Shown: positions 9,757 to 53,300 of the stretch, in pieces
Numbering within the stretch: the first letter of the stretch is position 1
How the letters are laid out: the number at the start of each line of letters is the position of its first letter
Origin: Candidatus Iainarchaeum sp.
GTDB taxonomy: Archaea; Iainarchaeota; Iainarchaeia; Iainarchaeales; JAFCCW01
NCBI GenBank assembly: GCA_017609985.1
Contig: JAFCCW010000002.1
Location: 590 to 64,589 of the forward strand
Reading direction: 5' to 3'
DNA: 64,000 bases
Notes under the pieces: model-generated
The model's database searches: none
What the model saw: only the letters and a program-made list of their open reading frames with translations
Told to the model about the DNA's origin: nothing
Made by a program: the position numbers and the translations under genes

Positions 9757-9767
9757 TCTATCACCAA

Positions 9768-9838: not shown

Positions 9839-9873
9839 AAATAGAAGGGAAAATGGAATAAAAGGATTTGTTT

Positions 9874-9990: not shown

Positions 9991-10143
9991 TTTAACACCT
10001 CCGTGTTTTCTCTATTTTTATTTCTATTTTTGAAATTTTCAGAATTAGTCAGGCAAAGCAATTCATCAATACTGTGGATGAAGGCATTCACCATTGTTTA
10101 ACTGAAAAATATCTGTTTTTTTGCTGCCTTTTTGGAAGCGAGT

Positions 10144-24017: not shown

Positions 24018-24030
24018 TAAATCACCAAAT

Positions 24031-24267
24031 CTAGTCCTTGTAAATGCTTATCTTGTCAATAAGCTCTTTTCCAAAAGTTGCAAACAAAAATAATACTGCT
24101 GGAATCCAAACAAGCTCTGGATACTGAAAAAATGTTAAGTAAACAACAATCACTGAAAACAGGATTGCGAGCTTTGCCGAACCAAGCTTTGATTTTGCCC
24201 AGGAATAAATCCACACAAGATAGACAAGAGACAAAACAGTCATTATGTTTTCAATCATGTTAGACAT
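24031..24267 (-). CDS. small polytopic membrane protein (~78 aa, 3 TM)
   Basis: The track ORF starts at TTG 24279. I prefer ATG 24267 (MSNMIENIMTVLSLVYLVWIY). Confidence 0.55.
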   Translation of the reverse strand: MSNMIENIMTVLSLVYLVWIYSWAKSKLGSAKLAILFSVIVVYLTFFQYPELVWIPAVLFLFATFGKELIDKISIYKD

Positions 24268-24308
24268 GTTATCAACCAATAATCTATTCTTCTAACTGGT
24301 TTAAATGC

Positions 24309-24626
24309 TTAGTGCCCTCCAGCAAGCCTGAATGTTCCCCAAATAATTACTGAAAGGAATTGCATTCCTAAGAGTATGTAAAGAATGTACATTGGAGCAA
24401 ACAGGTAAACCCATTTGAACACAAGGAAATAAATAAGCACTGCGGAAACAATTATTGAAACTACTCCGTTTCCAATATAACTTCTCACAGTCATAAAAAT
24501 CGTAAAAATAAGAATAAGCCTGAACACGATGTTTGCTGGGGGAAAAACAAGCATTATTACTGGCACAGCAATGGCTATCAGCAAGAACACTCCGAGAATA
24601 ATCAGAATAAATCCTCTATCATTCAT
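24309..24626 (-). CDS. small polytopic membrane protein (105 aa, 4 TM)
   Basis: The ATG lies 5 nt after the upstream stop. The protein is almost entirely hydrophobic. Confidence 0.6.
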   Translation of the reverse strand: MNDRGFILIILGVFLLIAIAVPVIMLVFPPANIVFRLILIFTIFMTVRSYIGNGVVSIIVSAVLIYFLVFKWVYLFAPMYILYILLGMQFLSVIIWGTFRLAGGH

Positions 24627-24631
24627 TTTTC

Positions 24632-25048
24632 TCAGCCCCCTGGCCCCCTTCTCATTATCTGCGATTGCTTCATTCTTCTTGCAACATCCGCACCACTGTT
24701 AACTGGAGACTTCCATCTTGGAGAGTCGCCCCCACCTGGTTTTCCATGGATAATCTCTTCCGGTCCTTGTCCCCCCTGCGGCTGTCCGCTTGGCATAACA
24801 AAGAAGAAATCTATTAACACTCCGCTGACTCCAAACAATAGCAATAGGTATAATACAAACAAGCCCCCAAAAAATGCCCAAAATTCAAACAATATAAACC
24901 AGCCGACTCCAGCCATTGCAACAACTGCCATTGGACTTGTGCCCAGGTGATTTTTCATAAAAGAAGCAATTGTCAGAAAAGCAAAAATCTTTATTACTAT
25001 ATTTGCGTCTGCGAGGAGTTCTCCAATAAACAAAAGTGAGTAAATCAT
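24632..25048 (-). CDS. small polytopic membrane protein (~138 aa, 3-4 TM, G/P-rich basic tail)
   Basis: The ATG at 25048 lies 4 nt after the TGA of the 2329-aa gene; the track's TTG at 25060 would overlap that gene. The tail reads PSGQPQGGQGPEEIIHGKPGGGDSPRW. Confidence 0.6.
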   Translation of the reverse strand: MIYSLLFIGELLADANIVIKIFAFLTIASFMKNHLGTSPMAVVAMAGVGWFILFEFWAFFGGLFVLYLLLLFGVSGVLIDFFFVMPSGQPQGGQGPEEIIHGKPGGGDSPRWKSPVNSGADVARRMKQSQIMRRGPGG

Positions 25049-25052
25049 AGCT

Positions 25053-38000: not shown

Positions 38001-39635
38001 GTAGAAAGTTACTGTTGTTACTCCAATTGGTTCTTTTGCACTATCTCTTGCGATAATCTTTATTGTTCCATCAGGAATAATCAGTGTTACTGTCAAAAGC
38101 TGCGGGTCATCTGACTTAGCAATGAACTTGATTGGGTCGCTCCAGTTAGAGTAGCTTCCCTTGAAAGCGAATGCCTTGTAGTCTCCGTTTTCAACTCCTC
38201 TGAATCTTGCTATTCCGTTGAGGTCAGTTGTTTTTGGAATCATTCCAAGAATAACAAATTCGTCTTCGTCGTAGAGATTAACTGTTGCATTCTTGACTGG
38301 CTCTCCGTCCTCGTCAATTACCAGCACGTTAAGGTCTGCTCCGCATAATCCTGGAGCAAATCTTGTCAGATAAATTGTGTAAATTGTTCCCCCTATGTCA
38401 AGCCCTGTTCTTGTGTTCATGCAGTAGTCTTCGTGGTCAGCACTAATCCAGAACGGCCCCTCTTCTGTCAGTGAAAATTCAACATATCCGTTTGAGTCAG
38501 TGAAAGCTGGTGCTTCTACTGCTTCGTCGTCTTTTCTCAGAATAATCATTGCATTGTCTATTTCGTCACTGCTAGTGCTGTCTCTTACTTTTATTTTTAC
38601 TTTTCCAAGAATTGTTTCGCTGACAACAACTTCCACAAGCTCTTCTGTTCCTGCTTCCAGAATAATTGTTCCTGATTCTGCAGAAGAATAACTATTGGAA
38701 GAGCCAACATTAATCGTGTAGTATCCTGCGTCAACGTTACTGAAGAGAACTATTCCTGTTGAAGTATCCTTTGTTCTGTAGGTTGCTCCAGAGTCTGCGA
38801 GGGAGAGAGTAACGTAAACATGCTCGTCAAGGAATTCCTGTCTGTCTGCATCAGTAAAAATCTTTACTCTGATGCTTCCTGTTTCTGCATCTGGATCCTC
38901 GCTTTTAAGATAGAGGGTAATCCTGTTTGAACCAGAGTTAAGTCTTCCGCCTTCTCTTAATTCATATCTGTCTGTCTGTGACCAAAGCTGTGTAATTTTG
39001 AGTCCCTGGCATTCGCTTGAAACCCTGACACTGAATCCGCCGGAAACAGGATTACTTACTGTTGGTGCAATAGTATTTGAAGAGTAAGTGCAGGCAAGCA
39101 CTATATTAACTGGGTCATTTACTGGGCTTCCGTACTCGTCAACAAAGTTAACTGTAACATCGTCATATTCGACTGGTTCAAGAGATTCTTCCAGAACTGC
39201 CGTGAATTCATAGTCTGCGCGGTCAATAATAAAACTGTCTGAAAAGTCTTCGTAACCATCTTTTTCAATGCTTATGCTTACGCTGTCTCCAACTTTTGCA
39301 TCTATGCCGTCAGTTATTGCATCAAGTCCTTTTGCAAGAACTGTCTTTTCTTCGCCTTCGCCAATAACATAGCTTACGCGTGTATTTGGCAAAGCATCTT
39401 TGTTCTCGTCTTCAACCGCAACCGTGAAAACAGCTGCTTGTTGAAAAATAAATGGAAGCACGAGGAAAAATATTCCAAGAATTATTAAAATAAAAAGCAG
39501 GATAAACAGGATAAAAGATGGAAAAACACGGTCTATTGGGTCAATTACTTTGTAAATCGGGATATATTGGTCAATCTTGTCAAGAAACTGATAATATCTG
39601 TCTTCAAGACTGTGATAAATGTCCTCAAGGCTCAT
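32088..39635 (-). CDS. giant membrane-anchored surface protein, paralog GP2515
   Basis: 2515-codon ORF. N-terminus: MSLEDIYHSLEDRYYQFLDKIDQYIPIYKVIDPIDRVFPSFILF plus a TM helix. Carboxypeptidase-regulatory-like repeats follow (LNVLVIDEDGEPVKNATVNLYDEDE...NGDYKAFAFKGSY). The central Gly-rich segment is GGGDSGSILGGGSGGGLLGGLGGAFMGLG. The C-terminal module has VYCDATQFSISL and SPFYYLPFNGRIGIDSDNGRQRYGINY. Confidence 0.9.
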   Translation of the reverse strand: MSLEDIYHSLEDRYYQFLDKIDQYIPIYKVIDPIDRVFPSFILFILLFILIILGIFFLVLPFIFQQAAVFTVAVEDENKDALPNTRVSYVIGEGEEKTVLAKGLDAITDGIDAKVGDSVSISIEKDGYEDFSDSFIIDRADYEFTAVLEESLEPVEYDDVTVNFVDEYGSPVNDPVNIVLACTYSSNTIAPTVSNPVSGGFSVRVSSECQGLKITQLWSQTDRYELREGGRLNSGSNRITLYLKSEDPDAETGSIRVKIFTDADRQEFLDEHVYVTLSLADSGATYRTKDTSTGIVLFSNVDAGYYTINVGSSNSYSSAESGTIILEAGTEELVEVVVSETILGKVKIKVRDSTSSDEIDNAMIILRKDDEAVEAPAFTDSNGYVEFSLTEEGPFWISADHEDYCMNTRTGLDIGGTIYTIYLTRFAPGLCGADLNVLVIDEDGEPVKNATVNLYDEDEFVILGMIPKTTDLNGIARFRGVENGDYKAFAFKGSYSNWSDPIKFIAKSDDPQLLTVTLIIPDGTIKIIARDSAKEPIGVTTVTFYNADSGERIGTTTTDGNSVKEYTSKADKSIYFVVRKDGYATFTSKEYDVLPNTTQEIYVKMIPRIISGKPELKLVGIVDKQGNNVTVVAPDEEYIAKFELQVPETGSGDNYTGLGFHVRAGSKNAMEREQFFLTKVNVPGSKIIVKSTSFNPPNNYSQDIEHVTEGSAKWINVELTGDSITSGVTQVEAEFTVRKTASINDKLELHYRSWAIKNGNIWERAPVDNELGEAEMTSAKHSLYANTNIKYLEIGIKEVCDDKFCYALSIIDLDEDLVSSITDSYEAEIFRRYELRFTVLNNSDLPVYGYPNALLKLENPEEKILLGNYSVTKAEADPVSGNVAGYESSWIEIGDFEPKTSFSGRFKFIPQEEASSALTIQAKSDLQVVYSKTILINTVAGKEFEIEVKPEKLVAGIEKEITVTVKEKGKGIEIADALVSIEDRFGDRIAEKRSNSMGKAVLSVPAQQPGEKLYIVVEKAGYKVLRYELVVSDEIISIEPDTIGFSVNVTTKKVDEKLFSIENLVPYDLTIYSLEFQGDFDELIDLSQANDWINTYTGGNIEEEEKRELLARIYTSEFASRQLEGKTVEGKLLIEVGTRDNTWLYEVPVKVSVNIGGSVDDPACLEVTKSSWRAMTEGNPVQLSFDVQNNCTIGGQPIPLHNLEAKIEWESNHLGRIGLKMGELTKELRPGYYRVFEPVFEAEDSKGSVLTFTPDPQVNGLANGKIIFQASNPTGGEMQKLSTELEFEISAVNLRECISVSDDIIEIKQGETGEFEIETHECGGTTSFEIESDLTLSETEFSLEGSGSEKITVTAEDMPGQYPIYVRAKGQDQKKMQLIDMVRVVTPSDSCIELSKYEYDVFPQDNGENGYDVAELHNRCYSKGVTGVTIDTRSWSDALKDGFQRGLIWALLGWLGDKDDGQGQANVTKASFGNVKNVTAENLSKAFNQAIPQARASMGNSSPTLSVDSLGQSDNIVTVTVGGTRNLRYFIDQESKSWNRNKADYAQLQGTQLTLINNLENEVQNILLGMEGTPVAGAEVAPSSGVGLPNPLEKEKSKIGEPCANHDNCESGKCDYTTKKCVNTLQAKALGEIPTTAYLNFFGGGDSGSILGGGSGGGLLGGLGGAFMGLGSTILGEPDPWTWGLWGVLYHATDAYSKQGVIAMERPVEAADLSIEEMIVLKESGLESVEDEDISVRDLEQYSVSAAKENYVGIQIGGEASGDMSLKERSREIAFINETGITQDNPSKPLFRIFKVAGERLDYKRSYGKTLPKELAIDEDKTEDFKEKFNLQFNSYHAQECGPDTFPCPAVERINCQLGELVGNTGEDAAPKIVFAWDWSEIPEDACDELNKDHVYCDATQFSISLMKKLKKVKDFLDQYGSSLYCPSLGAQFSSESQDLHESELDIGITRMSWSKDGQNVKAVLSIGTNIQGSVDVGYIMELKNSSGNIVDSCTGTAERVSKQSKTVECVLERQGTGSENFVLNARATPNLSTCTSEEHCEDNEAENNSISLNLNFSSSGITQCEPFKLSRLQDFVEASEHEGVSFPSGTREQVLSYANGFSALLVRDGYSDDLRHDFHEFSINNSFFGTPTWYTDGEEGIGKYFDSENRFSFSYPLVNQGAYAEAGVYEAKIEIEFDEGVSDWKLFNGGEMQAKITVNLFRKKAPKPDSPFYYLPFNGRIGIDSDNGRQRYGINYVQEAQEPIEINSDPMQRVITSEIIGSNPAAGKLLGGFEDSFTKLNNEKRGIVLDVRRLITDTSAAETRLTLSPSYATPVMMNVQHEKAEDAFGFYSIDVGGEPQTGSSRGLLPWSGVGVQCRDFFDQPIVDAFDDRYDMHAIDAECALIGGTSLVSFGLEWCNPVRSGNIYVESVVFTPQGKSSSMKRIAGSDSMTLITDETVGENILLNGVRGQAFNYAGGDEINVERILELVKQGKVCVSGYDNSMHSMFFWNPKPVLESMQDNVDNALNNCITGK

Positions 39636-39744: not shown

Positions 39745-40200
39745 TTAAGCAAGAAGGAGTCCCTGAGCATAGTCTGCTATGAAAGGGCTTATGACTGAAA
39801 GAAGTATTGCTATTGTCATCAGCAAAATTTCTTTTTTGAAAGAGCTTGCAAGATTTCCCTCTCCTTTCAGGTCCTTTAATGCTTTTATTCCGAGCAATGT
39901 TCCTGCATATGCTGCAACAAAAAATTGTGCTGCAAAAATCAATGAAAAAATATTTTGCGAAACAAGAATTCTTTGAGATAGTCCAACTGAAAGCAAAAGC
40001 AATGGAGTTAAAAATCCAAAGAAAAGCACTGCAAAAATAAATACTCCGAGTGTTGCAATAATCGAATCAGAAACACTGGTCATTGAAATGAAGCTGGTTT
40101 CCAGTCCGAGAAAATAGGATACAGCCAACCCCATTATGTAGAATCCTGCTGAGAGCAGCATTACTGCTTTTACTTCTCCTATTTTATTATTTTCTGTCAT
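39745..40200 (-). CDS. small polytopic membrane protein (151 aa, ~4 TM) between two giant genes
   Basis: Hydrophobic ORF co-oriented with the giant genes. No family recognised. Confidence 0.6.
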   Translation of the reverse strand: MTENNKIGEVKAVMLLSAGFYIMGLAVSYFLGLETSFISMTSVSDSIIATLGVFIFAVLFFGFLTPLLLLSVGLSQRILVSQNIFSLIFAAQFFVAAYAGTLLGIKALKDLKGEGNLASSFKKEILLMTIAILLSVISPFIADYAQGLLLA

Positions 40201-40316: not shown

Positions 40317-43300
40317 TCATTCTTCTTCTTTTTTTGGTTCGACTTCTTCTGCTAACTCTTCAGCTGTTTTTCCAATGTTTTCAAAATCAAGGTTTTCTCT
40401 TGCCCAAACAAGACTTATTCTTGAAGATGATGTGTCCTTTATGCACACTCTTCTGTCCTTTACCATATCCAAGTAGGTTTTTATTGACTGGTATTTTGTT
40501 GAATCCTTTATCTTCAAGCTTGTGTCTCCTTTTCTATAACCTGGAGTGAACTCTTTTGGTACTGGCATCTTGCCCATCTGCCTTGCAGTAATGTTTGACT
40601 TTCCCTGCGTGCAGTAAACTGAAAGCAAATACTCTTTGTTGTATGGAAGCAGTGCAACTGTGTTGTAGGTTTGTATTCCTTCAATTTCTTTTACAAATCC
40701 ATAATGGCTTTCTCCAATTTCTTCACAAATGTTTGCTGCTTCTTTTTGTGAAACAAGCTTATCAGTGATTGTGTCACTTGCTGACTTCCATTCAAATAAG
40801 TGTGCTGAACCATAACTTGGCTCTTTTGATGCAGCATCCAAAATTTCGTAAAGCAGTCCCTCGCTTCCAGTTTCTTCTTCTCCGTATCTGTCAGCTATTT
40901 CTAGCTTGAGTGCAACTGGATAAGATGGATTGTAAGTAATCTGTTTGCTTTCAACATGGAATATCATGCCTGAATTAGCATTTGCATAGTCTTTGTTGAC
41001 TTCTCCTAGATAGTTTGCAAGAGCTCCTGTTCCTTTGAATACAGCTTGTTTTTCTGCTTCTGAAGAGTAATTCAATAGCATTTCACTTATGTCTGCTTCT
41101 GAGCTTACAGCAACACCATATCCTTGTCTTGTGCCGTCTGCTAAACCAAGCTTTCCGTCAAAAGGCATCTTGAAGAAGATGTTCTTTGCATAAGCTGAAT
41201 CAATTTCTGAAAGAGCCTGCTCTCTTGAAAGATTAATTTCTATCTCTCTGTTTTCCCAGTTGTAGTTTACCTTAACTGAGTATTTTCCTGCTGAGTGCTT
41301 TCCAGTATTTTTCTCATCAACACTGAAATCCCAGTTTGTGACTCCGCCAACAAGCAATCTTTCTGCAAATCCAGTGCTGTCAAAGTCTGACTTGAAGTCT
41401 TCACTGAAACCGTCTTCCATCAAATAAGATTCAAATGAGATATCCTGATAGTAAACTTTTTCAAGCTCTCCTGTGTCAAGTCCCTGCCTGTTCTTTCCGT
41501 TCTTGAGAATAATCTCTATTTCCCCATCAGTCATTTCTTCTTTTTCTCTTATTCCGTTCACAAACCTGATGTTCTTGAGCAGGGTGTTCATGAATTCTCC
41601 GGTTGCAGTAATCTTGGTTGAACCATTCTTTTCAAGCAATCCATCAATATAGCATGTTTCAATATCTGTTTCACAGCTTCCAATGCTTTTGTCTGCTTTG
41701 ATTCTCTTCATTGCTGATTCTAACTGGTTGTGGAAGTTCTTCCATTCTCCGTAAGCCATTACATAGCCGATTCCTTCAACTTCCTTTGCACCCATTTTGT
41801 AGAGCTTTGGTTCGCTGTTATAAAATTTCTCAGTATCTGAATTCTTTTCAACAACTGCAACAATATTCTTTGCTTTTCCTCTTTCCTCTAGCTTGCCAAA
41901 CACTTGTGACATCTGAGTAATTATTGTTTTTATGTCTGAGCTTCCCTCGGGAATATCAATAATTTCTGCAAGACTCTTTGCAGTCTCATAGTCTTCAATA
42001 TTGAGTTTTTCTCCCTCCAGCACTCCGCTCTCGCTTTCAAAGAACACCAGAGTCTTGTTGTTCTTGTTGTCAAATATCTCAAACTGTTCCTTTGCCCATC
42101 TGTAAATATTCTCTGTGTTTTTGTAATCATCAAGGCAGCTGTCTTCGCTTTCATCTCCTTTTTCACATAATGCTCTCTTCAGCATCTTTGCGTGCTCTGT
42201 GTCTTTTATAACTGAGTCAATCTTTTCAATATAGGTTTTGATTGAGTCAACTTTTTTGTCAAGTGTCAGGGTAAACTGTGCTGCATCACAAAAGTTCGTT
42301 GCTCCTTCTTCTTCAATAAATCCTTCTTTTGGTTCATCACAAGCACTTTTTATAATATTGGATGAATCCCAGTCAAATAATAGTCTGTCAAAGCCATATT
42401 CATTGAATGCTCCTGTTCCAGTTTTTCCTCCTTCTCCGCAGTCAAAGGAAGCTGTTCCAATGCTTGTTTGAATTTGTCTCTGGCAGTCTCTCCACATTTT
42501 GTTAATCTGCTCGTCAGTGAATCCCTCGTTTGCAGCTTCCTGTGAAAACACGTCTTTTTCAAGATTCTTCTCAACACATTCTGCAATTAAGTCTCTTTCC
42601 TTCTGTGAATAGTATGGCTCGTCTTCACAGGTTTTCAAAAAGTCTGCATCAACCTGTGTCAAGTCAATTCCCTCGTTTAACACCCAAACTTTTACTGGAA
42701 TATTAACGCGTTGTGTTCCAACATTGTGTGTTGCTCTTGTGAGGTCTGATGACAGTCTTGTTTCAATTCTTGCACACATCATTGTCATGCTACTTCTGTC
42801 AATAGTCAGCTTTACATTGTGTCCATTGTCAATAACTGAAAATCCTAACATTACTCCACTTTTTTCATGAGTCCAGGTTACTGGTCTCAGGTTTGCAAGC
42901 TTGTCTAATGCTCCACAGAAATTTGGTGAAATTTTCATAACCTTGTTTGGGGTTGGAATAAACTCGTAGTCTCCGATTTCAAATTCTGTGTCTGGCACAA
43001 AACCCCATTTGTCTTCTTCTCCAAAGCCTTTTGCCATCCAGTACTCTACAACATTCAGTGCTCCTGTGTCAATGCAGTCCTGGAATTGAGTAATTGCTGG
43101 ATTGCCCCCTTCATATGGTTCAAGATATGGTCCTGCAAGGAACAAGTCCTCTATAACCACAGGAATATTTGTTGTGTTCTTTTGCTTGAAAGAATCATAA
43201 TAATTTACTTTTGCTGTTCCTCTTGCCTGAACTCTAAAATAAGCTTCTTGTGCATAAGCTCTTAGCTGTCCAATCTGAGTAAATGTTTTTCCCTTAAGCT

Positions 43301-46300
43301 GTAATGCTGCTCTTTCCCTGTAATCAATGTTTGGCTTTATTTCAAGTTCTACAACCTGCACTATTCCTCCGCCTGGAGCTGCCTGCCTGCTTTCTCCAGC
43401 AAACCATATTTGGTCAACAAGCTTACAGGTTCCCTCTGCATCGTATTTTGCCGGAACAGACGCATTTAAACTGCTTCTCTCCTTTAATACGGCTTGCTTT
43501 TCTGCCTCGCTTGTTAATTCTCCATAATTCTTTCCAAATAGTTTTTGAGCAATTCCATCCAGTTCTCCTCCGCCGGCTGCATTAGCTGTTGTTTCCCTCT
43601 GAGGTTCTGGCAAGTCTGGCAGTCCTGGGCAGTCAATTGAAAGAGTTTGAGCATTATCCTGCAAGTGCACTCCAGTGTCATAACAGTAGTTGTAAACCTT
43701 GACTCTTAATGGTCTTCCAATTATGTCTGTTAATTTTAATTTGCTTGGAGGCACAATCTTTATGCAGTCCTTGTCCATAAAGCCCTGAGTTGTAATCATC
43801 ACATTTATTTCTCTGACTTTTTTGTGCTTTTCCTCGCTTCCTGCAAGTCTTGCTTTTACTTCTACAGAAAACCTGCCCATTCTGTATCCTGGGATAAGAG
43901 TGATGTTTTCTCCATCGCCAGAGGCAAGTTCTATTTCTTCTTTGTCTGAGTTAAGATAAGGTCCTGTTTCAAGCTTTATTTCAACATCTTTTCCGCAATC
44001 GTTTTCAATGCTTATCATCTGCTGGCCGTACTGCCATTGATTGTAGTAAGAGCTGTCAAATTGGTTTAAAAATCCTGGCCCCATACTGTATGCTGGATTT
44101 GGATAACTTCCATAAGCCATTCCTGACTGATAAGCTGTTGTTCCAGTAGAACTTCCTCCAAAAGGATAAGGTGTTGTCCAGCCATAAGCATTGCTTGTTG
44201 ACCCAGTCATGTTTCTTGGGTCCTGGTTTGCAAGCAACAGAGTATCCTCGCTTAATTTGTCTGAAAATCCAGCCCAAGGGCTTGAATTAGTGTAATAATT
44301 TGATGCTCCGTAGCTTCCACCATAAACATTTGGATTATATCCCAGCTGTGAATACATTCCATAGCCTGTGCTGATTGGTGCTGCAACAAGCTGAATTGGT
44401 TCAGTCATTTTAAACTTCAGGCACTGAGTTAAGTCATTAACTGAAACACTTGCATTAATTTGTCCTGTTAATTCTTCGTTTCCGTTGTCAGTTATATTAA
44501 CTGCTTTAAACACGATGTTCGGGTTTGATTCTCCTGACTCAATATCTTCTTCCGGGTCAAAAGTGAATGTAAATTCTACTTCTCTTCCTGCTTCAATAAA
44601 TTCTGTGAGCGGTCTGGAAGTTTCAGTTATCTTTGTTGAACTTATTCCAAGCTCTGAAGAAGCAACACTGAATTCTCCCAACAGGTTTTCTTCTCCGCTT
44701 TTTTCAATAGCAATTTCAATATTTCTCAAAGGCGTGTTCACTCCGTTTACCTTGCAGTTGTTTCTCAGAGTTGATGTCAAAACCTTTTTCTGTGTGTCTG
44801 TTTCAATGCTCCATTCAAATGGTTCAAACTCAATACAGTTTGGTTCGTCAACTTCTCCGCCCAGCCCGATTCTGACGCTTACCGGCAGTGTAACAATCCA
44901 GTCTTTTTTGAAAACAGGGTTTGTAAGAGTAATCTCAATTACTCCTTCAAGAGTTGTTGTTTCTTCAACAAGCAATCCCTGCCTTGTAAGCGAAACAACT
45001 AATCCCAGGATTTTTTCTTCTGATTCCTCTCCTTCAATTTCTGCGCCCTCAACAGGGTCAAGGTCAATTGTCTGTCCCCTGTAATCTTCTGCCCAGTTAA
45101 ATTCTACTAATCCTTCAAAGTTCTCACTAATTTCAATTTCCTTTATAGTGAAAGGAATTGTTGAAAGATTCTCTGCAAGAATAGGTGTTTCTTTGCTTAA
45201 CACACTGTTAGTATTCAATAACACTGAAAGAAGCGGGGGTGTAAGCAAAACCACGTTCTCCTCGATATTTATCTCAACGCCAGCTGTTGCATAGTCTGAT
45301 TTTTCTGCAATAATTCTGACTACGTCGCCTGAATTCGGAGCCTCTAATTCATAACTATAAACTCCCTCTGAGCTGGTGATTCCCCCGCCAATTCTTTCAC
45401 TGTTCACATACACTGAAACAGTTGCGTTTCCAAGGTCTTCTTCCTCGCTTGAAACATGCACAAGAATTGTGTTGTCAATAAATGGAACAATAATTTTTGG
45501 CAGAATGTCTATTGACATGGTTTTTGGAGCAGGCACATCAACATAGATTTTTTTCTCAAAAACAGTGCTTCCTTCACTGCTTTGAATTTCTACTGAAAGT
45601 TCCTGCATTCCAGCTGTTTTTGTTTTGAACAAGATATTTCCTGAAACAGTTGAACCATTTGCAATAGTGCTTATTCCTGTTTCAAGTTCGTATCCTGAAG
45701 CATTTCCTGAAATTACTTTCCCGCTTGCATCCAGGATACTGTAGTCTTCGAGCTCAAGGCTGTTTGAAGTACTGGAAATCTTTATTTTTGAATTTGTAAA
45801 CACGCTGGAGGAAATGCTTGAAAAATCAAAGTATAGTCTATAGCTCTTGTCAAGTTTTGCATTGTAAGAAGAAATAACTGAAGTAAGTTCTCCAGTGGAC
45901 GTGTCCTGTATTTTGAATTCCTTGCAAAAGCTTGCAGTACAGGAAGAAATTCCTCCAACAGCATAACTCTCTCTTAACAGCTGAGCATAAAATCCCTGCT
46001 TTGTTGCAACTGAGCCAGCAGAACCAAGCTCTGAATCTTGCGGGCTTCTTGCATACTTTGCATTTGAATAAACCCAAGCTCTTCTTCCGATTTTAAGAGT
46101 GCCTGAAATTTCTGCTCCAGCATTAACCTGGAACAAAACATCAATTTCATAATCTCCTGGTTCTGGATTGTTCCATAAAACTTCTGCCCATTTTGCAGAA
46201 CCAGATGTCAGATTCTGTCTGTCCTGAGAATATCCTCCTGGTGGAGAATAACTTGTCCCCCGTGCAGTTGACTTTGCGCTTGAATAAACCTTGTAAATAA

Positions 46301-48308
46301 ACAATCCATCATTTTCCATGATATTTGTTTTTTCAAAACCTGTTTCTCCTGCAACAATCAATGCTCCTGCTTGTTCTGCATCAATACCCTGTGGGATTGA
46401 AAGAATATATTTTCCAGTATAAAGCTGTCCTTCAACAAGTGAAGACCCGCTCTGCACTCTCTCGTCTCCGAAAAACATTCCAAGAGGTTTTAATTCAAGC
46501 TTTGCAGTTGGTTGGGAGAGAACAACATCAAACACCCGAGTTTCTCCCTCTTTTGTTGACATTGAAGGGGTATTGTAAGCTGCATAACTGCTTTCATCTA
46601 TTCTGAAGAAAACTACTTCATCTTCTCTAACTTTAATAATTGCTTTTCCTTCACTGTCTGCTATAGCGCTTGAAAGAACAGCTCCGGTTACTGCATCTAT
46701 CTTCTCTACTTTTGTTCCAGGAACAGTTTCTCCTGTTTCATTCTTTACATTTACTTCTGCTGTTCCGCTTCCAATGCTTAGCGTTATTTTCAGGCTTGAA
46801 ATTTTTGAAGCAATAATTGTTTCCTGTTCTGAAACACTCGGAGGAAAACTTGACTTTTTTGCTTCAACATAAACTCGCAAGCCCTCTTCAAGAGTATACT
46901 CTGCCTTGCCATCAGAACCAGTTGCTTTTGAATCATCAATTACGGTGTGGTCATCAGCATCCTTCAAGACAAGCATTGCTCCCTGAATTGGCAAGCCCTC
47001 TAAGTCAACAACTTCTATTTCGAGGAAGCCAGTGTTTGAAATATCCTCTGTTGAAATAAAAACCTGAACAGTGCTGCTTCCAGTCAGGGTAGTTGATGTT
47101 CTTGCAGTTATATATCCTGATTTTTCAACACTGATATTGTAAACTGCATTTGAAGGCAAATCAAAAGAAGCCTCTCCGCTTGAATCGCTGTACTTTGGTC
47201 CTGCAATCTTGTAAGACTGCTCGTTCCTGATTTCAATCATTGCAGACTGCACTGCACTTTTTGTGTCTGCATCAATAATCTTTACTGTGAGCTTTGAGCT
47301 TGTAGTGCTCTCCATTACTGCATCAAAGCTTGCAACAGAATCCTTTGAAATCTGTTTAGAGGTTGTAGTAAGAGGCTTGTAAGTTCCCTCGCTGTCGGAT
47401 GCAACAAGATAGTAGCTTCCAACATCAATGTCAAGGAATTCAACTGTTCCGCTTGTATTAGAGTATTTTTCTCTTGCCTTAAAACCGTCAGAAGAATAAA
47501 TTTGCACAAGAATATTTGAAAGAGGGTCTCCGTCAGCATTCTTTACTGAAACATAAGCGCTTCCCTTGTCCACTGTTCTTGGCTCAAGCAAAACTTCCGG
47601 CGCAGTTCCTGAAAGAGAAATTCTGCCATACACGACTGTATAATTATCTCCCACTATGTCAACAACAAGCTCTCCGCAGTCTGAAGGAATATTGTCAATT
47701 CTTATTTCTCCGCCGACAACCTGCTTTTGTTCAAAAAACTCAGAGTTTGAAGTACAGTCAAAGTTTGCAAAAAGACTGTCTGAAAGAAGCTGCTGTGTTT
47801 CAGAATTTTTGAACTTAATTGTTTTTGAAACTAAAGTAATTTTTGGGTCAAGCCTTATTTTTTTGGAAAACTCAGCATAGTCTTCCGGAATTGTAAAAGT
47901 TTCAGTTGCATCCTCGTAATCTGTTGGAGCAGTAATGTTTAGCGTAATTTCCTGCCCAATAGGGGCATTAAATTTTGCCTGTCCGTCTGAAACAGAAACA
48001 GTAGTCGGTGCATTGTCTGCCCAGCGATATGAAATATCAAAGCTATTGTTAATGCTGTTTCCAGACTGGCTGTCTGCAAACGAAAGAACAACACTTGACT
48101 GGCCTCCAAACAGGTTCATTCCGCCTGCAAGGAAAAAGATTCCAAAAAGCAACAGCAAAACAACAAGAACAAAGACTGGGAATGAGGGGATATTGCTGGC
48201 TTCTATTGCATCGACAAGCCCGTAAACAGGCACTCCTTTTTCATCAAGCCAATCAAGAAATCCATAGTACTTGTCTTCAAGGCTATAGTAAATGTCCTTC
48301 AGTCCCAT
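40317..48308 (-). CDS. giant membrane-anchored surface protein, paralog GP2663
   Basis: 2663-codon ORF. N-terminus: MGLKDIYYSLEDKYYGFLDWLDEKGVPVYGLVDAIEASNIPSFPVF plus a TM helix. Beta-sandwich repeats follow. The central segment is a G/S/Y-rich low-complexity region. The C-terminal module has NFCDAAQFTLTL and FFKMPFDGKLGLADGTRQGYGVAV. Confidence 0.9.
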   Translation of the reverse strand: MGLKDIYYSLEDKYYGFLDWLDEKGVPVYGLVDAIEASNIPSFPVFVLVVLLLLFGIFFLAGGMNLFGGQSSVVLSFADSQSGNSINNSFDISYRWADNAPTTVSVSDGQAKFNAPIGQEITLNITAPTDYEDATETFTIPEDYAEFSKKIRLDPKITLVSKTIKFKNSETQQLLSDSLFANFDCTSNSEFFEQKQVVGGEIRIDNIPSDCGELVVDIVGDNYTVVYGRISLSGTAPEVLLEPRTVDKGSAYVSVKNADGDPLSNILVQIYSSDGFKAREKYSNTSGTVEFLDIDVGSYYLVASDSEGTYKPLTTTSKQISKDSVASFDAVMESTTSSKLTVKIIDADTKSAVQSAMIEIRNEQSYKIAGPKYSDSSGEASFDLPSNAVYNISVEKSGYITARTSTTLTGSSTVQVFISTEDISNTGFLEIEVVDLEGLPIQGAMLVLKDADDHTVIDDSKATGSDGKAEYTLEEGLRVYVEAKKSSFPPSVSEQETIIASKISSLKITLSIGSGTAEVNVKNETGETVPGTKVEKIDAVTGAVLSSAIADSEGKAIIKVREDEVVFFRIDESSYAAYNTPSMSTKEGETRVFDVVLSQPTAKLELKPLGMFFGDERVQSGSSLVEGQLYTGKYILSIPQGIDAEQAGALIVAGETGFEKTNIMENDGLFIYKVYSSAKSTARGTSYSPPGGYSQDRQNLTSGSAKWAEVLWNNPEPGDYEIDVLFQVNAGAEISGTLKIGRRAWVYSNAKYARSPQDSELGSAGSVATKQGFYAQLLRESYAVGGISSCTASFCKEFKIQDTSTGELTSVISSYNAKLDKSYRLYFDFSSISSSVFTNSKIKISSTSNSLELEDYSILDASGKVISGNASGYELETGISTIANGSTVSGNILFKTKTAGMQELSVEIQSSEGSTVFEKKIYVDVPAPKTMSIDILPKIIVPFIDNTILVHVSSEEEDLGNATVSVYVNSERIGGGITSSEGVYSYELEAPNSGDVVRIIAEKSDYATAGVEINIEENVVLLTPPLLSVLLNTNSVLSKETPILAENLSTIPFTIKEIEISENFEGLVEFNWAEDYRGQTIDLDPVEGAEIEGEESEEKILGLVVSLTRQGLLVEETTTLEGVIEITLTNPVFKKDWIVTLPVSVRIGLGGEVDEPNCIEFEPFEWSIETDTQKKVLTSTLRNNCKVNGVNTPLRNIEIAIEKSGEENLLGEFSVASSELGISSTKITETSRPLTEFIEAGREVEFTFTFDPEEDIESGESNPNIVFKAVNITDNGNEELTGQINASVSVNDLTQCLKFKMTEPIQLVAAPISTGYGMYSQLGYNPNVYGGSYGASNYYTNSSPWAGFSDKLSEDTLLLANQDPRNMTGSTSNAYGWTTPYPFGGSSTGTTAYQSGMAYGSYPNPAYSMGPGFLNQFDSSYYNQWQYGQQMISIENDCGKDVEIKLETGPYLNSDKEEIELASGDGENITLIPGYRMGRFSVEVKARLAGSEEKHKKVREINVMITTQGFMDKDCIKIVPPSKLKLTDIIGRPLRVKVYNYCYDTGVHLQDNAQTLSIDCPGLPDLPEPQRETTANAAGGGELDGIAQKLFGKNYGELTSEAEKQAVLKERSSLNASVPAKYDAEGTCKLVDQIWFAGESRQAAPGGGIVQVVELEIKPNIDYRERAALQLKGKTFTQIGQLRAYAQEAYFRVQARGTAKVNYYDSFKQKNTTNIPVVIEDLFLAGPYLEPYEGGNPAITQFQDCIDTGALNVVEYWMAKGFGEEDKWGFVPDTEFEIGDYEFIPTPNKVMKISPNFCGALDKLANLRPVTWTHEKSGVMLGFSVIDNGHNVKLTIDRSSMTMMCARIETRLSSDLTRATHNVGTQRVNIPVKVWVLNEGIDLTQVDADFLKTCEDEPYYSQKERDLIAECVEKNLEKDVFSQEAANEGFTDEQINKMWRDCQRQIQTSIGTASFDCGEGGKTGTGAFNEYGFDRLLFDWDSSNIIKSACDEPKEGFIEEEGATNFCDAAQFTLTLDKKVDSIKTYIEKIDSVIKDTEHAKMLKRALCEKGDESEDSCLDDYKNTENIYRWAKEQFEIFDNKNNKTLVFFESESGVLEGEKLNIEDYETAKSLAEIIDIPEGSSDIKTIITQMSQVFGKLEERGKAKNIVAVVEKNSDTEKFYNSEPKLYKMGAKEVEGIGYVMAYGEWKNFHNQLESAMKRIKADKSIGSCETDIETCYIDGLLEKNGSTKITATGEFMNTLLKNIRFVNGIREKEEMTDGEIEIILKNGKNRQGLDTGELEKVYYQDISFESYLMEDGFSEDFKSDFDSTGFAERLLVGGVTNWDFSVDEKNTGKHSAGKYSVKVNYNWENREIEINLSREQALSEIDSAYAKNIFFKMPFDGKLGLADGTRQGYGVAVSSEADISEMLLNYSSEAEKQAVFKGTGALANYLGEVNKDYANANSGMIFHVESKQITYNPSYPVALKLEIADRYGEEETGSEGLLYEILDAASKEPSYGSAHLFEWKSASDTITDKLVSQKEAANICEEIGESHYGFVKEIEGIQTYNTVALLPYNKEYLLSVYCTQGKSNITARQMGKMPVPKEFTPGYRKGDTSLKIKDSTKYQSIKTYLDMVKDRRVCIKDTSSSRISLVWARENLDFENIGKTAEELAEEVEPKKEEE

Positions 48309-48471: not shown

Positions 48472-50271
48472 TTAAGCTGGTGCGGGAACACAAGCCCCTG
48501 TTCCAGTCGGGCCGCCCATGAGTCCGCCTGCTGCACTGCTGTCGTATGAAATGCAATGCCAGTCTTTGTCATTGAAACTGCATGGGATCAAGTGCCTTGC
48601 AGGATCAAACTCTTCAAGACCACAGTAGTCTGCTTTTTTTGCAGGGCTAGTGTTTGTCTGACTGTACTGTGCAGTGAATGGAGTAAAGCTTTCATCCCTA
48701 ATTTCTATTCTGTAAAAGTAATCATGCGAATTGTCAACCATATATTCTTCATCTGTTTCCTTGAATGTAAAAACAAGCCTTATGCTGTCTATTCCTGCAC
48801 AATACTCCCATCTCTCGTCTGAGTTGAGTGTAGAGTTCGAACAGCTGTCTGCGGGAATTCCACTGCAGTTCTCTGCTCCAGCACAAACAACATTGCTTCC
48901 GTCAAAAGAGTATCCTATAAATCTTGTGTCTGCTCCTGTGAGTCCTGCAATCCAATCCATTGGGCACTGGTCTGAAGAGGACAGGTTTTGGTTTGCTCTG
49001 AAAGAGCTGGTGAGCGGGGCAGGAGCTGTTGACGGAGCAGAACCGCTTGGAACAATCTTTATTTTCTTTGATTTCTCAGCTTTTGTTTCCACAATAATCT
49101 GGTCAATATTGCAATCCAGAACACCTGGCGATATGTTTGCTGGGACCAGCCCCTCGCTTGTTCCTGCTCCAATAAATGGGTTTCCAGTTCCAGGCGTATT
49201 GTTTGCAATAAAGCACAATCTTCTTTTGACAATGTCCTTTAGCTTGTCCTGCATTGTAGTCAGGTTTCTTGGGTTGTACTGCTCTGGCGCTGGAGTGCAT
49301 ACACCATAATCTGAATCAAGCCTTGAAGTAAAAGAGTCTCCTGCTCCGCATAATTCCACGTTGTCAATTCTGTCAGGGGAATCGCTTCGCGAACAGCTCT
49401 TTGCGCCAACATCAGTTGCTGGCGGGGTATAAGGATTTGTTCTTGGATTGCAGTATCCTGCATCACAGTAACCAAGTTTCATCATCTCCAGTTCATTGTG
49501 GAGTCGTGGAGAGAAAAATCCATAATCGTTTCCTGGAAATTTTGCAAAAGAATGAACTTCAGCAAGTGCTTTGAAGATTCTTACTGGAACATAAATCTTG
49601 AATTTTCTTCTCGGCAGAATAATTTCCTTAATCATGTTGCCATTGTTTAGATTAGTTATTTCAATTGCGGGGAGCTTATCATAGGTTTCCTCTTCTATTT
49701 GCGTCAAATCAAGCGTTATGTAGAAAGCTCCGCTTGGGCAGTTGTATGGGTCTCCGTTCTCGCATTCTATTACTTCGATGAAGTCATCGTTTTCTATATT
49801 CTGTTTGAACACATCCTCTAGTCCATCAATCATTTCTTCTTTCCTGTTTCCCCAGTCAACAGTCTTTATCTGGTAGGTGCCGCACTTTCCATAGTATGCT
49901 GGCATGTCCGAGTACAGAGCTATCAGCCAGGTGACCGTAAAATTTGCAAAATTCCTTGCATTTGAACCAAACTTCTCTGTCTGAAAATCATGCACAAGCG
50001 TGTCCCAGTCCTTCCCCCTCATGTTAAGCTCTGTTGGAGACGAGCCAAAGAAATCCGCAATCCTGTATCTAAGCAGGTAATTAAATGTCTGGAAAGTGTC
50101 TGCTCTCTTCATGTCAGAAATAGCTTTTATTTCCGACTTGCATTCAATTGACCTAATAACCTCGTAAGCTGTTCTCTCACTAGCAGTCATCTGCTGAACA
50201 AGCAGAGCGGACAAGGCAATGAGAATAAATGCCACAAGTGCAGTGAACATATTAAAAGCGCGCTCATCCAT
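48472..50271 (-). CDS. Cys-rich extracytoplasmic protein with an N-terminal hydrophobic anchor or pilin-like signal (599 aa)
   Basis: MDERAFNMFTALVAFILIALSALLVQQM, followed by a polar region with more than 25 Cys. Embedded between two giant genes on the same strand. No family recognised. Confidence 0.7.
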   Translation of the reverse strand: MDERAFNMFTALVAFILIALSALLVQQMTASERTAYEVIRSIECKSEIKAISDMKRADTFQTFNYLLRYRIADFFGSSPTELNMRGKDWDTLVHDFQTEKFGSNARNFANFTVTWLIALYSDMPAYYGKCGTYQIKTVDWGNRKEEMIDGLEDVFKQNIENDDFIEVIECENGDPYNCPSGAFYITLDLTQIEEETYDKLPAIEITNLNNGNMIKEIILPRRKFKIYVPVRIFKALAEVHSFAKFPGNDYGFFSPRLHNELEMMKLGYCDAGYCNPRTNPYTPPATDVGAKSCSRSDSPDRIDNVELCGAGDSFTSRLDSDYGVCTPAPEQYNPRNLTTMQDKLKDIVKRRLCFIANNTPGTGNPFIGAGTSEGLVPANISPGVLDCNIDQIIVETKAEKSKKIKIVPSGSAPSTAPAPLTSSFRANQNLSSSDQCPMDWIAGLTGADTRFIGYSFDGSNVVCAGAENCSGIPADSCSNSTLNSDERWEYCAGIDSIRLVFTFKETDEEYMVDNSHDYFYRIEIRDESFTPFTAQYSQTNTSPAKKADYCGLEEFDPARHLIPCSFNDKDWHCISYDSSAAGGLMGGPTGTGACVPAPA

Positions 50272-50330: not shown

Positions 50331-53300
50331 TTAACTAAGAGAGCTTCGTATTGCTGAAACATTTTTTACCCAGCTCTCGTATCCTGCTGTTGAATCACAG
50401 CAATAGCAATGTCCTCCTGCTTTTGCACAGCAGAAATAGTTTAGGTTGCAGCTTGAAGTAATGCTTGGAGCGACCATTTTTGCAACAGTGTCCTGTGGCG
50501 GACTGTGATTAACATATTGTTCCTTTAATTTTTGAAAATAAACCTTTATGCAGTCTTCTGCAGAATCAAATTTTGCAAATCTGGTTCTTGAAGGACACGT
50601 GCCTGCTGTCTCAGCATACTTTGAAACACCATCATAACCTAATCCGAATAAGTTATTGCAGTTAACTGCAAGAGAGCTTGTTCCACTTGCAGATTCTTGC
50701 ACAGCTGTTGCCACTCCATGCCCTGGATCAATGCCATATTGAACACCATACTTCCAGAACAGTTCCCCAGTATTATTGAATTTTGAACCAAAGTTTCTAT
50801 TTACATAGGACACTACTTTGCTTTGCTGAGAAGTAATTTTCAAGAAAGAAACATTTTTCCAGTCAGAAGAGCCAGGATCTTCTCCTCCAGCATTCTGCTG
50901 TCCAGTCCCATTATTCACTGGACTTTTTTTTTTTAAAAATTCTTCAATTCCGTTTGCTAGTCCCTTTGCAACCTTGCTTGTTGAACTGCTTGAAACAAGC
51001 TTGTCTGCTTGCACTCCATATTCTCCTATTTCAATAAGAGTCACAGGTGCGTTGGTGTTACTGATTATTGCAAGATTGTCATAATTGCTGTAATCTTCTG
51101 GTTTGCATCCTTTGTTTTTGTAACTTGTTGAATTAGCAAGACTGGACATTACTAACCTACACAATTCCCTGTCTGGCTCTGGATTGTCTGAAGCATCTTT
51201 TCCAACAATTCCAAGCAAGGCATCAGAGCAGGCTCCTGAACAGGCATCTGAATGAATTGAAACAATCAGAGTGCAGTTTTGTTCATTAATTCTTTTAACT
51301 CTTGAAGTCAATCCGTCTCCAGTGGGTCCTGTCCTAGTCATCCAAGTTCCAATTCCCCTGCTTTGCAGTTCTGCTTCCAGTGCCTTTGCATTTGCAAGAT
51401 TTACTTCTGGCTCTCTCTGCCCTGCTCTTGACCCATCACCATGTCCTGCGTCAATGCAGACAAGAAAGTCTCCAGTAACTTGTGTTCCTGAACTTGTTGG
51501 CCCAATACACTGCTTTGGTCTGCAGTATTCAGCATGCTTTCCTGAAAGCTTTACTTCCAGACTGCTTAATACCACTCCGCTGCTTCTTGGCTCATTATTT
51601 TTTCCTGTTGAGCCAGAAGGAGCACTGCTAGTGGAATGAATAACCTGTCCATTGCCATAGTACATCATTACATGTCCATAACCGCTTGTTCCAGTTGAAA
51701 TAATGTCTCCTGGCTGAAGCTCTTCCTTTGAAATGCTTACTGCATAACCTGCGCCAATAAGCGTGTCACAAACTTCTCTTCCATTTCCTGTCTTTCCACT
51801 CCATCCATATTTGCTTATTACTGAGCCCACAAAAGTTGCACAGGTAAGACCAGGGTTATTGCAGTTTTCAGGAGTTAGCCAGACTGGTGTTGGTCCTTCT
51901 GGTTTGTATTTGCATCCAAGATATTGTTCAGCATACTCTACTATTCCAGAACAGTTTCCGCCGCTGGTTCCAGACAAACCTGGAGAATTTTCATTTTTAG
52001 GCTCTCCCTCTCTCAATCCAGACGGCAAAGCACTTGTCTTGTAAGCCTCTATGTCTACTTTGAAGTTTTTCCAGGTCTTGTAAGTATCATACATTTCTCT
52101 CCCGTCTGCTTGTCCTTCTGCAAGCTCTGCCAGCTTTTCAAGAGCACACTTCTCATCGTTATTGCATTCTTTCATGAAACCAGATAACACATTTGCAAGA
52201 TCCTCTATTGCTGTTGGAAAGTCAGCTTCCTCATATGACTTGACTCCAAACATTCCTGCTACAAGCAGTGCCTCTTCCATCTCATGCTTGTAAGCAGCTT
52301 CTGCAAGAGGTCCCTGTATTTCTGGATTTGTGTAAATTGAAATTCTCTCAGGATTCTTTACCTTTTTCGCATTCTCTGGGTCTGCCGGGTTTAGAGAGCC
52401 AAAGATTGCGTGAATTCCATGTTGTAAAAATTCTCCAGAGCAATCAGTGTCCAGCCTTACAGCTGGCTCGTTCTCTTTTTCAATTTCCTTGTTCATTGCC
52501 TCAAACTGTTCTTTTTCCTTGACCTCTGTCATATCAACATGCTTTGCATAATTCTTTGAAACAACAAACTTGTAGGTGTGGTATTTCTGCAATTCAATTC
52601 CTTCTATTCCATTGAACATTACAAGTCCTTCCTCATTTGCAGGATTTGCACTGTCTTCCTTTAACCACCAATTGTATGCTCCGTAACCAGCTGCATTTGA
52701 AAGAGCTCCGCAGATAAGCCCCTTGCCAAGTTCCTTGAAGAAAGTCCTGCTAAAGAAAGTCTTGAAATAAGTCTTCAATCCCTTCCATCTTCCCGTCTTT
52801 GGAATCTCTGCTTTTTCAAGAATTTCCTGTCCAAACTGCTCTCCTACTTCTCGTGAGACAAGTTTTCCTAACACATCAGTATTATTTCGAACAGCTTTCT
52901 TCATTGAATTCTTTGCCGCGGTTTGAGCATCATCTGCAGCAATATGGTATTTTGGGAATTGTTTATCAACAATTCTTCCTTGTGGTCCTTCAGTAACCTG
53001 CAAGGTAATTGACTCCCCTGTTTCCTTTATCTGAGCTGATAGCCTTTCATGAAGATCTCCTTGTAACTCTCTTCTAATTCTTTCTTTGAAGTTGCTTGGA
53101 ATCTGTGCTCTTTGTGCAGGTGTCAAGCCAGCATCAAACTCGTCAGCCATCCTGTTTGACAAATCTTTAGATGCAGTATCTGCAAGCGCATCTTTTAAGT
53201 CCTCAATTGTGCCCGAAATCTCATCCAGCGTGGTTCCATAATTGCTTGACATTGGATAACTTGAGCCTGTAATCCCATCAACATTCGCAAGCGCATCAAG

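Follow-up and report, generated by a model that had tools for sequence, protein, structure and literature searches.

What would an archaeon do with three bacterial-type murein hydrolase domains carried at the end of a giant, membrane-anchored protein? The question is raised by G4, a giant open reading frame (ORF) of 3374 amino acids (aa) found in a 64,000-nucleotide (nt) stretch of DNA from Candidatus Iainarchaeum sp. (GCA_017609985.1, contig JAFCCW010000002.1, positions 590–64,589), which we refer to as the window and to which the coordinates of G4 and its neighbours refer. We consider it likely, with a probability of about 0.6, that G4 is the first gene of a surface-protein operon of a DPANN archaeon (Diapherotrites, Parvarchaeota, Aenigmarchaeota, Nanoarchaeota, Nanohaloarchaeota), and that the cassette made up of the three domains is displayed externally and digests the bacterial wall locally on contact. 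The idea that such archaea attach to or attack bacteria is already published and gains support from G4, while the new element is the triple catalytic cassette which stands in place of the single SLT domain of a relative and reveals a swappable lytic end.

The three domains had been recognised, in the same order, in the first-pass annotation of this DNA, and all of them score above the Pfam gathering cut-offs when the whole G4 protein is scanned (23 bits for NLPC_P60, 27 for Amidase_3 and 30.2 for Glucosaminidase). The cassette, which that annotation had located at 50331–51960, was placed by us at 50334–51968, and the gene and its hydrolase domains are as follows:

50331..60455, minus strand: G4, giant ORF of 3374 aa with a GTG start, 10,125 nt, first gene of the surface-protein operon
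51486..51968, minus strand: NlpC/P60 cysteine endopeptidase domain, aa 2830–2990 (Pfam, CwlO alignment, subfamily alignment, AlphaFold2 and Foldseek)
50943..51461, minus strand: Amidase_3 zinc N-acetylmuramoyl-L-alanine amidase domain, aa 2999–3171 (Pfam, PDB alignments, AlphaFold2 and Foldseek)
50334..50858, minus strand: GH73 glucosaminidase domain, aa ~3200–3374, with a Cys-rich C-terminal tail (FCC...CYCCD) (Pfam, 8yxk and subfamily alignment)

The Amidase_3 match (PF01520; aa 2999–3171) scored 71 bits with an E-value of 1.6e-19 and runs over model positions 1–173 of 174, the Glucosaminidase match (PF01832; aa 3232–3315) scored 39.5 bits (E 1.1e-9), and the NLPC_P60 match (PF00877; aa 2869–2943), the weakest of the three, scored 27.5 bits (E 3.2e-6). 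NCBIfam and a sequence search of the PDB were concordant with these assignments and returned CwlD, 4rn7 and CwlV among amidases, CwlO as an NlpC/P60 enzyme, and 8yxk, a phage wall hydrolase of the GH73 type (E 1.2e-7 with the GH73 domain).

The motifs quoted for these domains in the first-pass annotation are present, each aligns to the catalytic position of a solved enzyme, and none is substituted. For the NlpC/P60 domain we looked for a catalytic Cys, a catalytic His and a third polar residue (His/Asn/Gln): Cys2872 (LTCATFV) and His2928 (GHVMMYYG) match the catalytic Cys and His of CwlO in the alignment and do not vary among 12 related domains, and His2940 (VIHS) lies at the expected position of the third triad residue. 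The zinc ligands His3005, Glu3015 and His3068 of the Amidase_3 domain, together with the catalytic Glu3142, align to those of CwlV (1jwq) and 4rn7, and Glu3254 of the GH73 domain (AVQESASG, with the E-S/T motif) coincides in alignment with the catalytic Glu of 8yxk, 6fxo and 5wqw, and 14 related domains retain it. Judged by these alignments, all three cassette domains appear to be catalytically competent.

Structure prediction agrees for the first two domains. When the NlpC/P60 domain was modelled alone with AlphaFold2 (mean predicted local distance difference test, pLDDT, 85.9; predicted template modelling score, pTM, 0.85), the top 40+ PDB matches found by Foldseek were NlpC/P60 peptidoglycan endopeptidases (including MepS, Acd24020, LytE and CwlO) with target-normalised TM-scores (template modelling scores) of 0.6–0.79 for single-domain targets, and a papain-like alpha+beta fold is confirmed in the predicted structure. 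The Amidase_3 fold is likewise confirmed in the model of aa 2617–3374, where pLDDT blocks for this domain are mostly at least 90 and the TM-scores are 0.85 to 4rn7 and 0.83 to 1jwq; this longer model is confident for Amidase_3 only, because MAFFT aligned the multi-domain hits poorly. We also note that the Cys-rich tail of the GH73 domain (window 50334–50480, aa ~3325–3374; NYFCCAKAGGHCYCCDSTAGYESW) is conserved in the archaeal GH73 domains of P0008, P0012, P0013 and P0036, possibly forming a metal or disulfide cluster peculiar to the GH73 subfamily concerned.

Relatives of G4 were sought by an exhaustive phmmer search with its last 1,200 residues against 1.84 billion representative proteins, followed by BLASTP. 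The first of these returned an identical 3374-aa entry and giants of 2,692–2,920 aa, and by BLASTP aa 3–2802 of G4 are collinear with aa 19–2769 of P0003 at 32% identity, with P0057, P0026, P0132 and P0083 aligning to G4 likewise. One of these, P0026 (2904 aa), has a C-terminal Pfam SLT lytic transglycosylase domain (aa 2746–2875), and no match to this domain was found by Pfam in G4 at E-values of up to 0.1. The contigs encoding P0026 and P0003 (L003 and L004, respectively) carry the giant, a ~570–580-aa protein, a second giant and a ~155–160-aa membrane protein in this order, which in the window is seen as G4, p599, G3 and p151 with partner identities of 29–33%:

48472..50271, minus strand: p599, conserved partner with an N-terminal transmembrane helix (31% and 29% identity to the 582-aa and 563-aa genes after the giant in L004 and L003, respectively)
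40317..48308, minus strand: G3, second giant of 2663 aa, counterpart of the second giant in L003 and L004 (33% / 30% identity over ~1750 aa; Pfam CarboxypepD_reg)
39745..40200, minus strand: p151, small protein with several transmembrane helices, conserved after the second giant

There was no Pfam or NCBIfam match for p599. Other searches added little: a word-indexed protein search with the cassette, the upstream region and the family alignment gave one weak Amidase_3 match and nothing else, because the family is too divergent for such an index, and GTDB genomes scanned with the cassette yielded no relatives. Metagenomes scanned with the upstream domain gave nothing, and those scanned with the NlpC/P60 subfamily gave generic homologues only (28–36% identity), none of them closer to G4. 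An 'FES' motif in the upstream domain of the relatives was considered as a second, degenerate SLT-like domain and was dropped, as G4 is without it.

The giants part company beyond aa ~2802, where P0026 continues for ~190 residues which include the SLT domain and G4 for ~545–570 residues with three different catalytic domains; G4 is ~450–680 aa longer than the related giants. The region covering aa ~2430–2810 also recurs in shorter proteins or fragments with other ends (GH73 and Amidase_2 in P0005; M23 and GH73 in P0016), and these different hydrolase ends on a shared upstream region show that the family has a constant scaffold with a swappable lytic end. Phage endolysins and weaponised hydrolases vary in a comparable manner, and by analogy the swapping fits a tuning of the lytic end to different wall types. 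Some of the relatives appear to lack a working end: in P0003, the closest full-length relative, the last third of the tail (aa 2770–2920; L004 ~18300–18760) resembles the SLT domain of P0026, but Pfam detects no SLT in this tail, and as its 'ES' catalytic motif seems to have been replaced the hydrolase may be degenerate, while P0057 and P0132 seem to be without any hydrolase end.

The nearest relatives of the cassette domains also lie in archaeal neighbourhoods. P0007 (CHAP/NlpC-like and Amidase_3), the nearest relative spanning both of these domains, has an Alba gene nearby, and P0004 (NlpC/P60, 48% identity) and P0008 (GH73, 43% identity) are flanked by Pelota and RFC genes, and P0008 adjoins PheRS-beta and TrmB as well; in some of the nearest NlpC/P60 and GH73 relatives the same upstream motif stands at the start. 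Since the closest domain relatives are archaeal, we take the hydrolase domains to be long-standing in the lineage rather than a recent bacterial insertion or an assembly join, and G+C content and codon usage agree with this. P0004 and P0008 themselves belong to a second archaeal family of polytopic proteins (740–1060 aa with 3–6 transmembrane helices; L006 2578–5760, L007 8001–10379 and L008 3322–5700) with a conserved locus consisting of Pelota, one gene, the hydrolase protein, three ~320-aa genes and RFC. The ends of these proteins are NlpC/P60 in P0004 and P0010, GH73 in P0008 and P0013, and both in P0009, while that of P0015 is assigned to GH73 by homology to P0008 and P0011 and has no Pfam match. 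By comparison of these sequences, the same kind of end-swapping is found in the second family at one conserved, different locus.

Where the cassette would be in relation to the cell is predicted from the following features of G4:

60240..60305, minus strand: TM1, N-terminal signal-anchor, aa 51–72 (Kyte-Doolittle 3.07; also in the paralogues G1–G3)
53958..60239, minus strand: large acidic presumed ectodomain, aa 73–2166 (Pfam; charge)
53874..53957, minus strand: hydrophobic segment H2, aa 2167–2194, with RKK before it, and with conserved Cys, Gly and Trp followed by a conserved 'DC..P' motif
52731..53873, minus strand: H2–H3 region, aa 2195–2575 (consensus almost all 'x'; net charge 0 compared with strongly acidic flanks)
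52662..52730, minus strand: hydrophobic glycine-rich segment H3, aa 2576–2598, LGKGLICGALSNAAGYGAYNWWL, with a K/R-rich stretch before it (conserved in all family members)
51969..52607, minus strand: conserved, mostly helical domain, aa 2617–2829, common to all family members whatever hydrolases follow
51945..52040, minus strand: junction, a low-complexity Gly/Ser/Pro linker, aa 2806–2837, where the homology to P0003 and the SLT-bearing P0026 ends and the cassette begins

The N-terminal anchor at aa 51–72 bears out the membrane tether proposed in the first-pass annotation, and is preceded by a conserved 50-aa tail with 'EEKYYGL'. A ~50-aa N-terminal tail, the hydrophobic anchor and ~1,000 aa of acidic beta-sandwich domains are common to G1–G4, which share the first ~1050 aa. 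Pfam places CarboxypepD_reg / prealbumin-like beta-sandwich domains of G4 at aa ~339–411 and 944–1008, and the net charge is −50 over aa 73–1050 and −37 over aa 1051–1785. We note that an acidic Glu-rich low-complexity linker of 87 aa (aa 1814–1900, window 54756–55016) divides G4 into two halves, and that the BLAST alignments of G4 to P0026 and P0083 also break at this linker, through which G4 and its full-length relatives pass on to the module with H2 and H3. The H2–H3 region starts with the conserved 'DC..P' motif and a short hydrophobic stretch (aa 2197–2210), is poorly conserved in its remainder, and may be a cytoplasmic loop, and directly after H3 several family members have DNDGDG/CDGxDND repeats which resemble extracellular calcium-binding sites.

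In the topology model that we prefer, the N-terminus would be inside and the large ectodomain outside, H2 would cross inward and be followed by the cytoplasmic loop, and H3 would cross outward, so that the helical domain and the cassette would end up outside. H2 and H3 are oriented in this way because of the K/R-rich stretch before H3, the calcium-site-like repeats after it, and the net-neutral H2–H3 region compared with the acidic remainder. Cysteine makes up 3–5% of each cassette domain (overall 4.0%), compared with 0.2% of the ectodomain's first ~1,000 aa, and this was also counted in favour of the reading set out below. However, the earlier description of the cassette as the distal end of a fibre is not established: as the conserved H2 and H3 lie just upstream, the cassette may, if the topology model holds, sit near a membrane and not at a free fibre tip. 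Alternatively, H2 and H3 may be segments that enter the membrane of the target cell, and in both cases the most economical function would be a local digestion of the bacterial wall upon contact.

Under the reading we favour, the signal-anchor would hold G4 in the membrane, the acidic beta-sandwich ectodomain of ~2,100 aa would probably be a stalk or adhesin, and the family-wide C-terminal module (two hydrophobic segments and the helical domain) would be followed by the variable lytic cassette. The endopeptidase would then cut the stem peptide, the amidase would free the peptide from N-acetylmuramic acid (MurNAc) at the MurNAc-L-Ala bond, and the glucosaminidase would cleave glycan strands, these three cleavages being expected because such families make them in bacteria. 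The wall opened in this way could serve attachment, cell-to-cell connection or nutrient release, and predation, parasitism or DNA uptake, which had been suggested earlier, would be conceivable uses. We infer the extracellular location, enzyme activity, bacterial target and biological role of the cassette from sequence and predicted structure.

The first-pass annotation had taken such an attack on bacteria to be unusual for DPANN-like archaea, but giant murein-hydrolase proteins have already been published together with a bacterial-host reading (PMC8204110, PMC9723730). Castelle et al. (2021) described 'fam00969' from Woesearchaeota and Pacearchaeota, whose members reach 3,000 aa and carry a murein transglycosylase domain, and took them as a sign that some of these archaea are bacterial episymbionts (PMC8204110); Vigneron et al. 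(2022) argued likewise for 'vampiristic' Woesearchaeota (PMC9723730); and Strock et al. (2025) reported peptidoglycan hydrolases from ~5% of archaeal genomes, with Nanoarchaeota prominent among them, and showed that two of these hydrolases kill a bacterium (PMC12352652). The DPANN archaea in cultivation all have archaeal hosts, and the case for bacterial hosts of the very abundant Woesearchaeota and Pacearchaeota rests largely on the giants with a murein transglycosylase domain. The G4 locus is a second line of support, with lytic ends that differ between relatives and every version found being a murein enzyme, and this pattern, with three intact active sites in G4, would be difficult to account for if the true substrate were not peptidoglycan. 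At ~570 aa the cassette is a compact, expressible fragment whose natural variants could be matched to bacterial wall types, and its enzymes may be of interest as antibacterials.

Several points weigh against this reading. No wall-binding domain (LysM, SH3b, PG_binding or SPOR) was found in the Pfam scan of G4, and of the complete murein-degrading kit claimed earlier the three domains stand, while a recognised wall-binding domain and a lytic transglycosylase are missing from it. The GH73 match spans only model positions 3–86 of 123, and the GH73 part of the AlphaFold2 model (aa 2617–3374) has a pLDDT mostly <50, the alignment being shallow and poorly anchored here. The RKK cluster before H2 conflicts with the positive-inside rule for the preferred topology, and were H2 or H3 alone to span the membrane, the cassette would lie in the cytoplasm. 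In addition, the organism is placed only via weak similarity of its DNA polymerase to archaeal metagenome-assembled genomes (MAGs), at 38–47% identity, and we infer the membership of P0026 in 'fam00969' from the description in the paper and not from its sequences.

Of the alternatives, the one that survives best, and which we regard as plausible though less likely, is that the cassette is a weapon or feeding tool without any symbiosis or need of a stable bacterial host, killing competitors or obtaining amino acids and amino sugars from the peptidoglycan of dead bacteria, and either held at the surface or released. It draws on the demonstration that archaeal peptidoglycan hydrolases kill bacteria and on their patchy distribution, which has been read as an arms race (PMC12352652), as well as on the proposal that dead-bacterial peptidoglycan is an amino-acid source for Pacearchaeota (PMC11537232), and the swapping of cassettes would fit a weapon-like turnover. 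However, the enzymes are on a membrane-anchored protein of 3,374 aa rather than a small secreted one, which favours contact action, the operon has further giant adhesin-like proteins, and no protease site or release mechanism was identified in G4.

A more specific version of contact with bacteria is speculative, and likens the C-terminal module to phage tape-measure or tail-tip proteins. Here the conserved module would be a cross-domain penetration device, in which the cassette opens the wall and the glycine-rich segments insert into the bacterial membrane, anchoring the archaeon or opening a channel. If this were true, the hydrolase set would decide which bacteria a lineage parasitises, and the locus would be a host-range determinant of bacteria-dwelling DPANN.

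We find it improbable that the substrate is something other than murein, such as a methanogen host's pseudomurein, some other polymer of archaeal envelopes, or the archaeon's own envelope. In pseudomurein the glycan links are beta-1,3 and a MurNAc-L-Ala bond is absent, and the Pei-type enzymes belong to another family, both of which count against such a substrate. The residues of murein-type catalysis are kept in all three domains of G4 and the best matches are bona fide murein hydrolases; there is no pseudomurein-binding repeat in the Pfam scan of G4, and the relative P0026 carries SLT, likewise a murein enzyme. What speaks for a non-murein substrate is that NlpC/P60 and amidase folds can in general gain new specificities, that the closest partial match to the DNA polymerase (47%) is on a contig labelled Methanobacteriaceae and could hint at co-occurrence with a methanogen, and that all demonstrated DPANN hosts are archaeal, as stated in one account (PMC11291902).

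It is very unlikely that the domains are no longer enzymes and act as peptidoglycan-binding adhesion modules. Non-catalytic NlpC/P60 proteins do exist, with RipD as an example among the structural matches, and a binding role for the domains would agree with the lack of a separate binding domain in G4, but the Cys/His/His set, the zinc His/Glu/His with the catalytic Glu, and the GH73 Glu are all retained, also in the archaeal subfamilies. Finally, bacterial or phage DNA misassembled onto an archaeal gene is hardly credible, for although the domains are typically bacterial and the tetranucleotide and codon-usage correlation with the rest of the window is 0.85 for 50331–52050 compared with 0.89–0.95 for the rest of the gene, we see no sign of the archaeal/bacterial join that had been named earlier as a possible refutation, the frame being open across the junction, the G+C content (0.42 against 0.41–0.44 in the rest of the gene) and codon usage close to those of the gene and window, the next downstream gene p599 a conserved partner of the giant, the nearest NlpC/P60 and GH73 relatives set in archaeal neighbourhoods, and an identical 3374-aa protein present in the public representative library.

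Having favoured a cassette that acts on bacterial walls at contact, we compared G4 with known systems. The giants described by Castelle and colleagues (PMC8204110; also the 2015 genome AR20) and by Vigneron et al. (2022, PMC9723730) have, like G4, an N-terminal anchor, a CarboxypepD_reg-type beta-sandwich region and a conserved C-terminal module. Further likenesses are the end-to-end alignment of G4 with the SLT-bearing P0026, the operon order, and the proposed action on bacterial walls; the difference is in the end, which is SLT in those giants, while G4 is without SLT and has three other catalytic domains. The modular hydrolases of Strock et al. resemble G4 as archaeal genes for bacterial-type murein hydrolases with domain shuffling and a proposed or shown action on bacteria (examples are Woldo with M23 and PG_binding_1, Danwoldo with GH73 and PG_binding_1, and the Woesearchaeales combinations of LysM with SLT and LysM with Amidase_3). 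They were defined by at least one catalytic and at least one cell-wall-binding Pfam domain (PMC12352652), and G4, in which no wall-binding domain was recognised, would fall outside the count of that survey. In contrast to G4, which has three catalytic domains and no recognised binding domain on an anchored giant, these hydrolases are small and secreted, with one catalytic domain and wall-binding domains.

Several peptidoglycan-cutting domains in one membrane-tethered chain are also found in the Gram-positive conjugation hydrolases PrgK of pCF10 (LytM, SLT and CHAP), TraG of pIP501 (SLT and CHAP) and CwlT of ICEBs1 (muramidase and NlpC/P60), which make a local hole for a cell-to-cell machine. 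The likeness extends to the type IV filament ATPase gene that adjoins the giant in the loci of G4 relatives, and in the window we saw no components of type IV secretion; these hydrolases differ in acting on the producer's own wall, in being far smaller, and in having no known sequence relationship to G4 outside the catalytic domains. Endopeptidase, amidase and glucosaminidase activities are combined, with modular swapping of catalytic domains, in autolysins and endolysins such as Atl of S. aureus (amidase and GH73) and those of the LysK type (CHAP, amidase and SH3b), but these have wall-binding domains, are 250–1,300 aa long, and are encoded by bacteria or phages.

Very large surface proteins with domains suggesting attachment and wall degradation are known from predatory Omnitrophota, ultra-small cells whose giants are membrane-associated and mostly extracellular (West-Roberts et al. 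2023, 10.1101/2023.11.21.568195). These differ from G4 in being bacterial and of 10–85 thousand aa, with many transmembrane helices and SecA-like domains, and no homology to G4 has been shown. The SPEARE proteins of Nanohaloarchaeota are giant DPANN surface proteins with adhesion and degradative domains which are thought to mediate host contact; likened to G4 by their description, they have protease and restriction endonuclease domains and archaeal hosts.

The source of G4 is probably a DPANN-type archaeon related to Woesearchaeota or Pacearchaeota; no closer genome was found, so that this placement rests mainly on the family of giant proteins. The window is cellular and archaeal, and it contains a family-B DNA polymerase, an M24 methionine aminopeptidase, HisRS, Trk transport genes and seven transfer RNAs (tRNAs), with no ribosomal RNA gene within it. 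The archaeal context described in the first-pass annotation holds for the DNA polymerase, which is closest to archaeal MAGs, the methionine aminopeptidase, and a probable intron-bearing tRNA. The closest GTDB species representative for the DNA polymerase is an Undinarchaeota MAG (38% identity), and its last 214 residues share 47% identity with the contig labelled Methanobacteriaceae mentioned above. This 9.9-kb contig (L002, PWMT01000167.1, from a MAG labelled Methanobacteriaceae archaeon) has a DEAD-box helicase that is 43% identical to a window gene in addition to the DNA polymerase fragment, and could be a DPANN contig placed in the wrong bin, or else a hint that the archaeon occurs together with a pseudomurein-walled methanogen.

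The surface-protein locus as a whole covers 23371–60455 on the minus strand, and consists of four tandem paralogous giants (G1–G4) with the conserved p599 and p151. Hydrolase domains are found in G4 only, G1–G3 being without them, and the two giants that remain to be listed are:

32088–39635, minus strand: G2, paralogous giant of 2515 aa
25053–32042, minus strand: G1, paralogous giant of 2329 aa

Upstream of the giants of L003 and L004 (positions 1–10000) there are genes for an archaellum-type (FlaI-like) ATPase and a ~780-aa T2SSF-like protein and a run of small genes, possibly for pilins, together with a 193-aa gene of the exosortase/archaeosortase family with a weak 'pacearchaeosortase' match, which suggests that the giants are linked to a sortase as well as to a type IV filament system. 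Upstream of G4 in the window (60.5–64 kb) the ATPase, T2SSF-like, pilin-like and sortase genes are all absent. By the start of G4, the region 60710–63981 is unlike the upstream regions of the relatives' giants, and has ORFs of 704 aa (plus strand, with a signal-like N-terminus), 197 aa (plus strand) and 202 aa (minus strand), none with a Pfam or NCBIfam match. The intron-bearing candidate among the tRNAs is 106 nt long (window 7437–7542, minus strand), with an Rfam score of 57 bits and no call by ARAGORN; it probably contains an intron, and introns are common in archaeal tRNAs. At the other end of the surface-protein locus, downstream of G1, there are five small ORFs with several transmembrane helices each (23371–25060).

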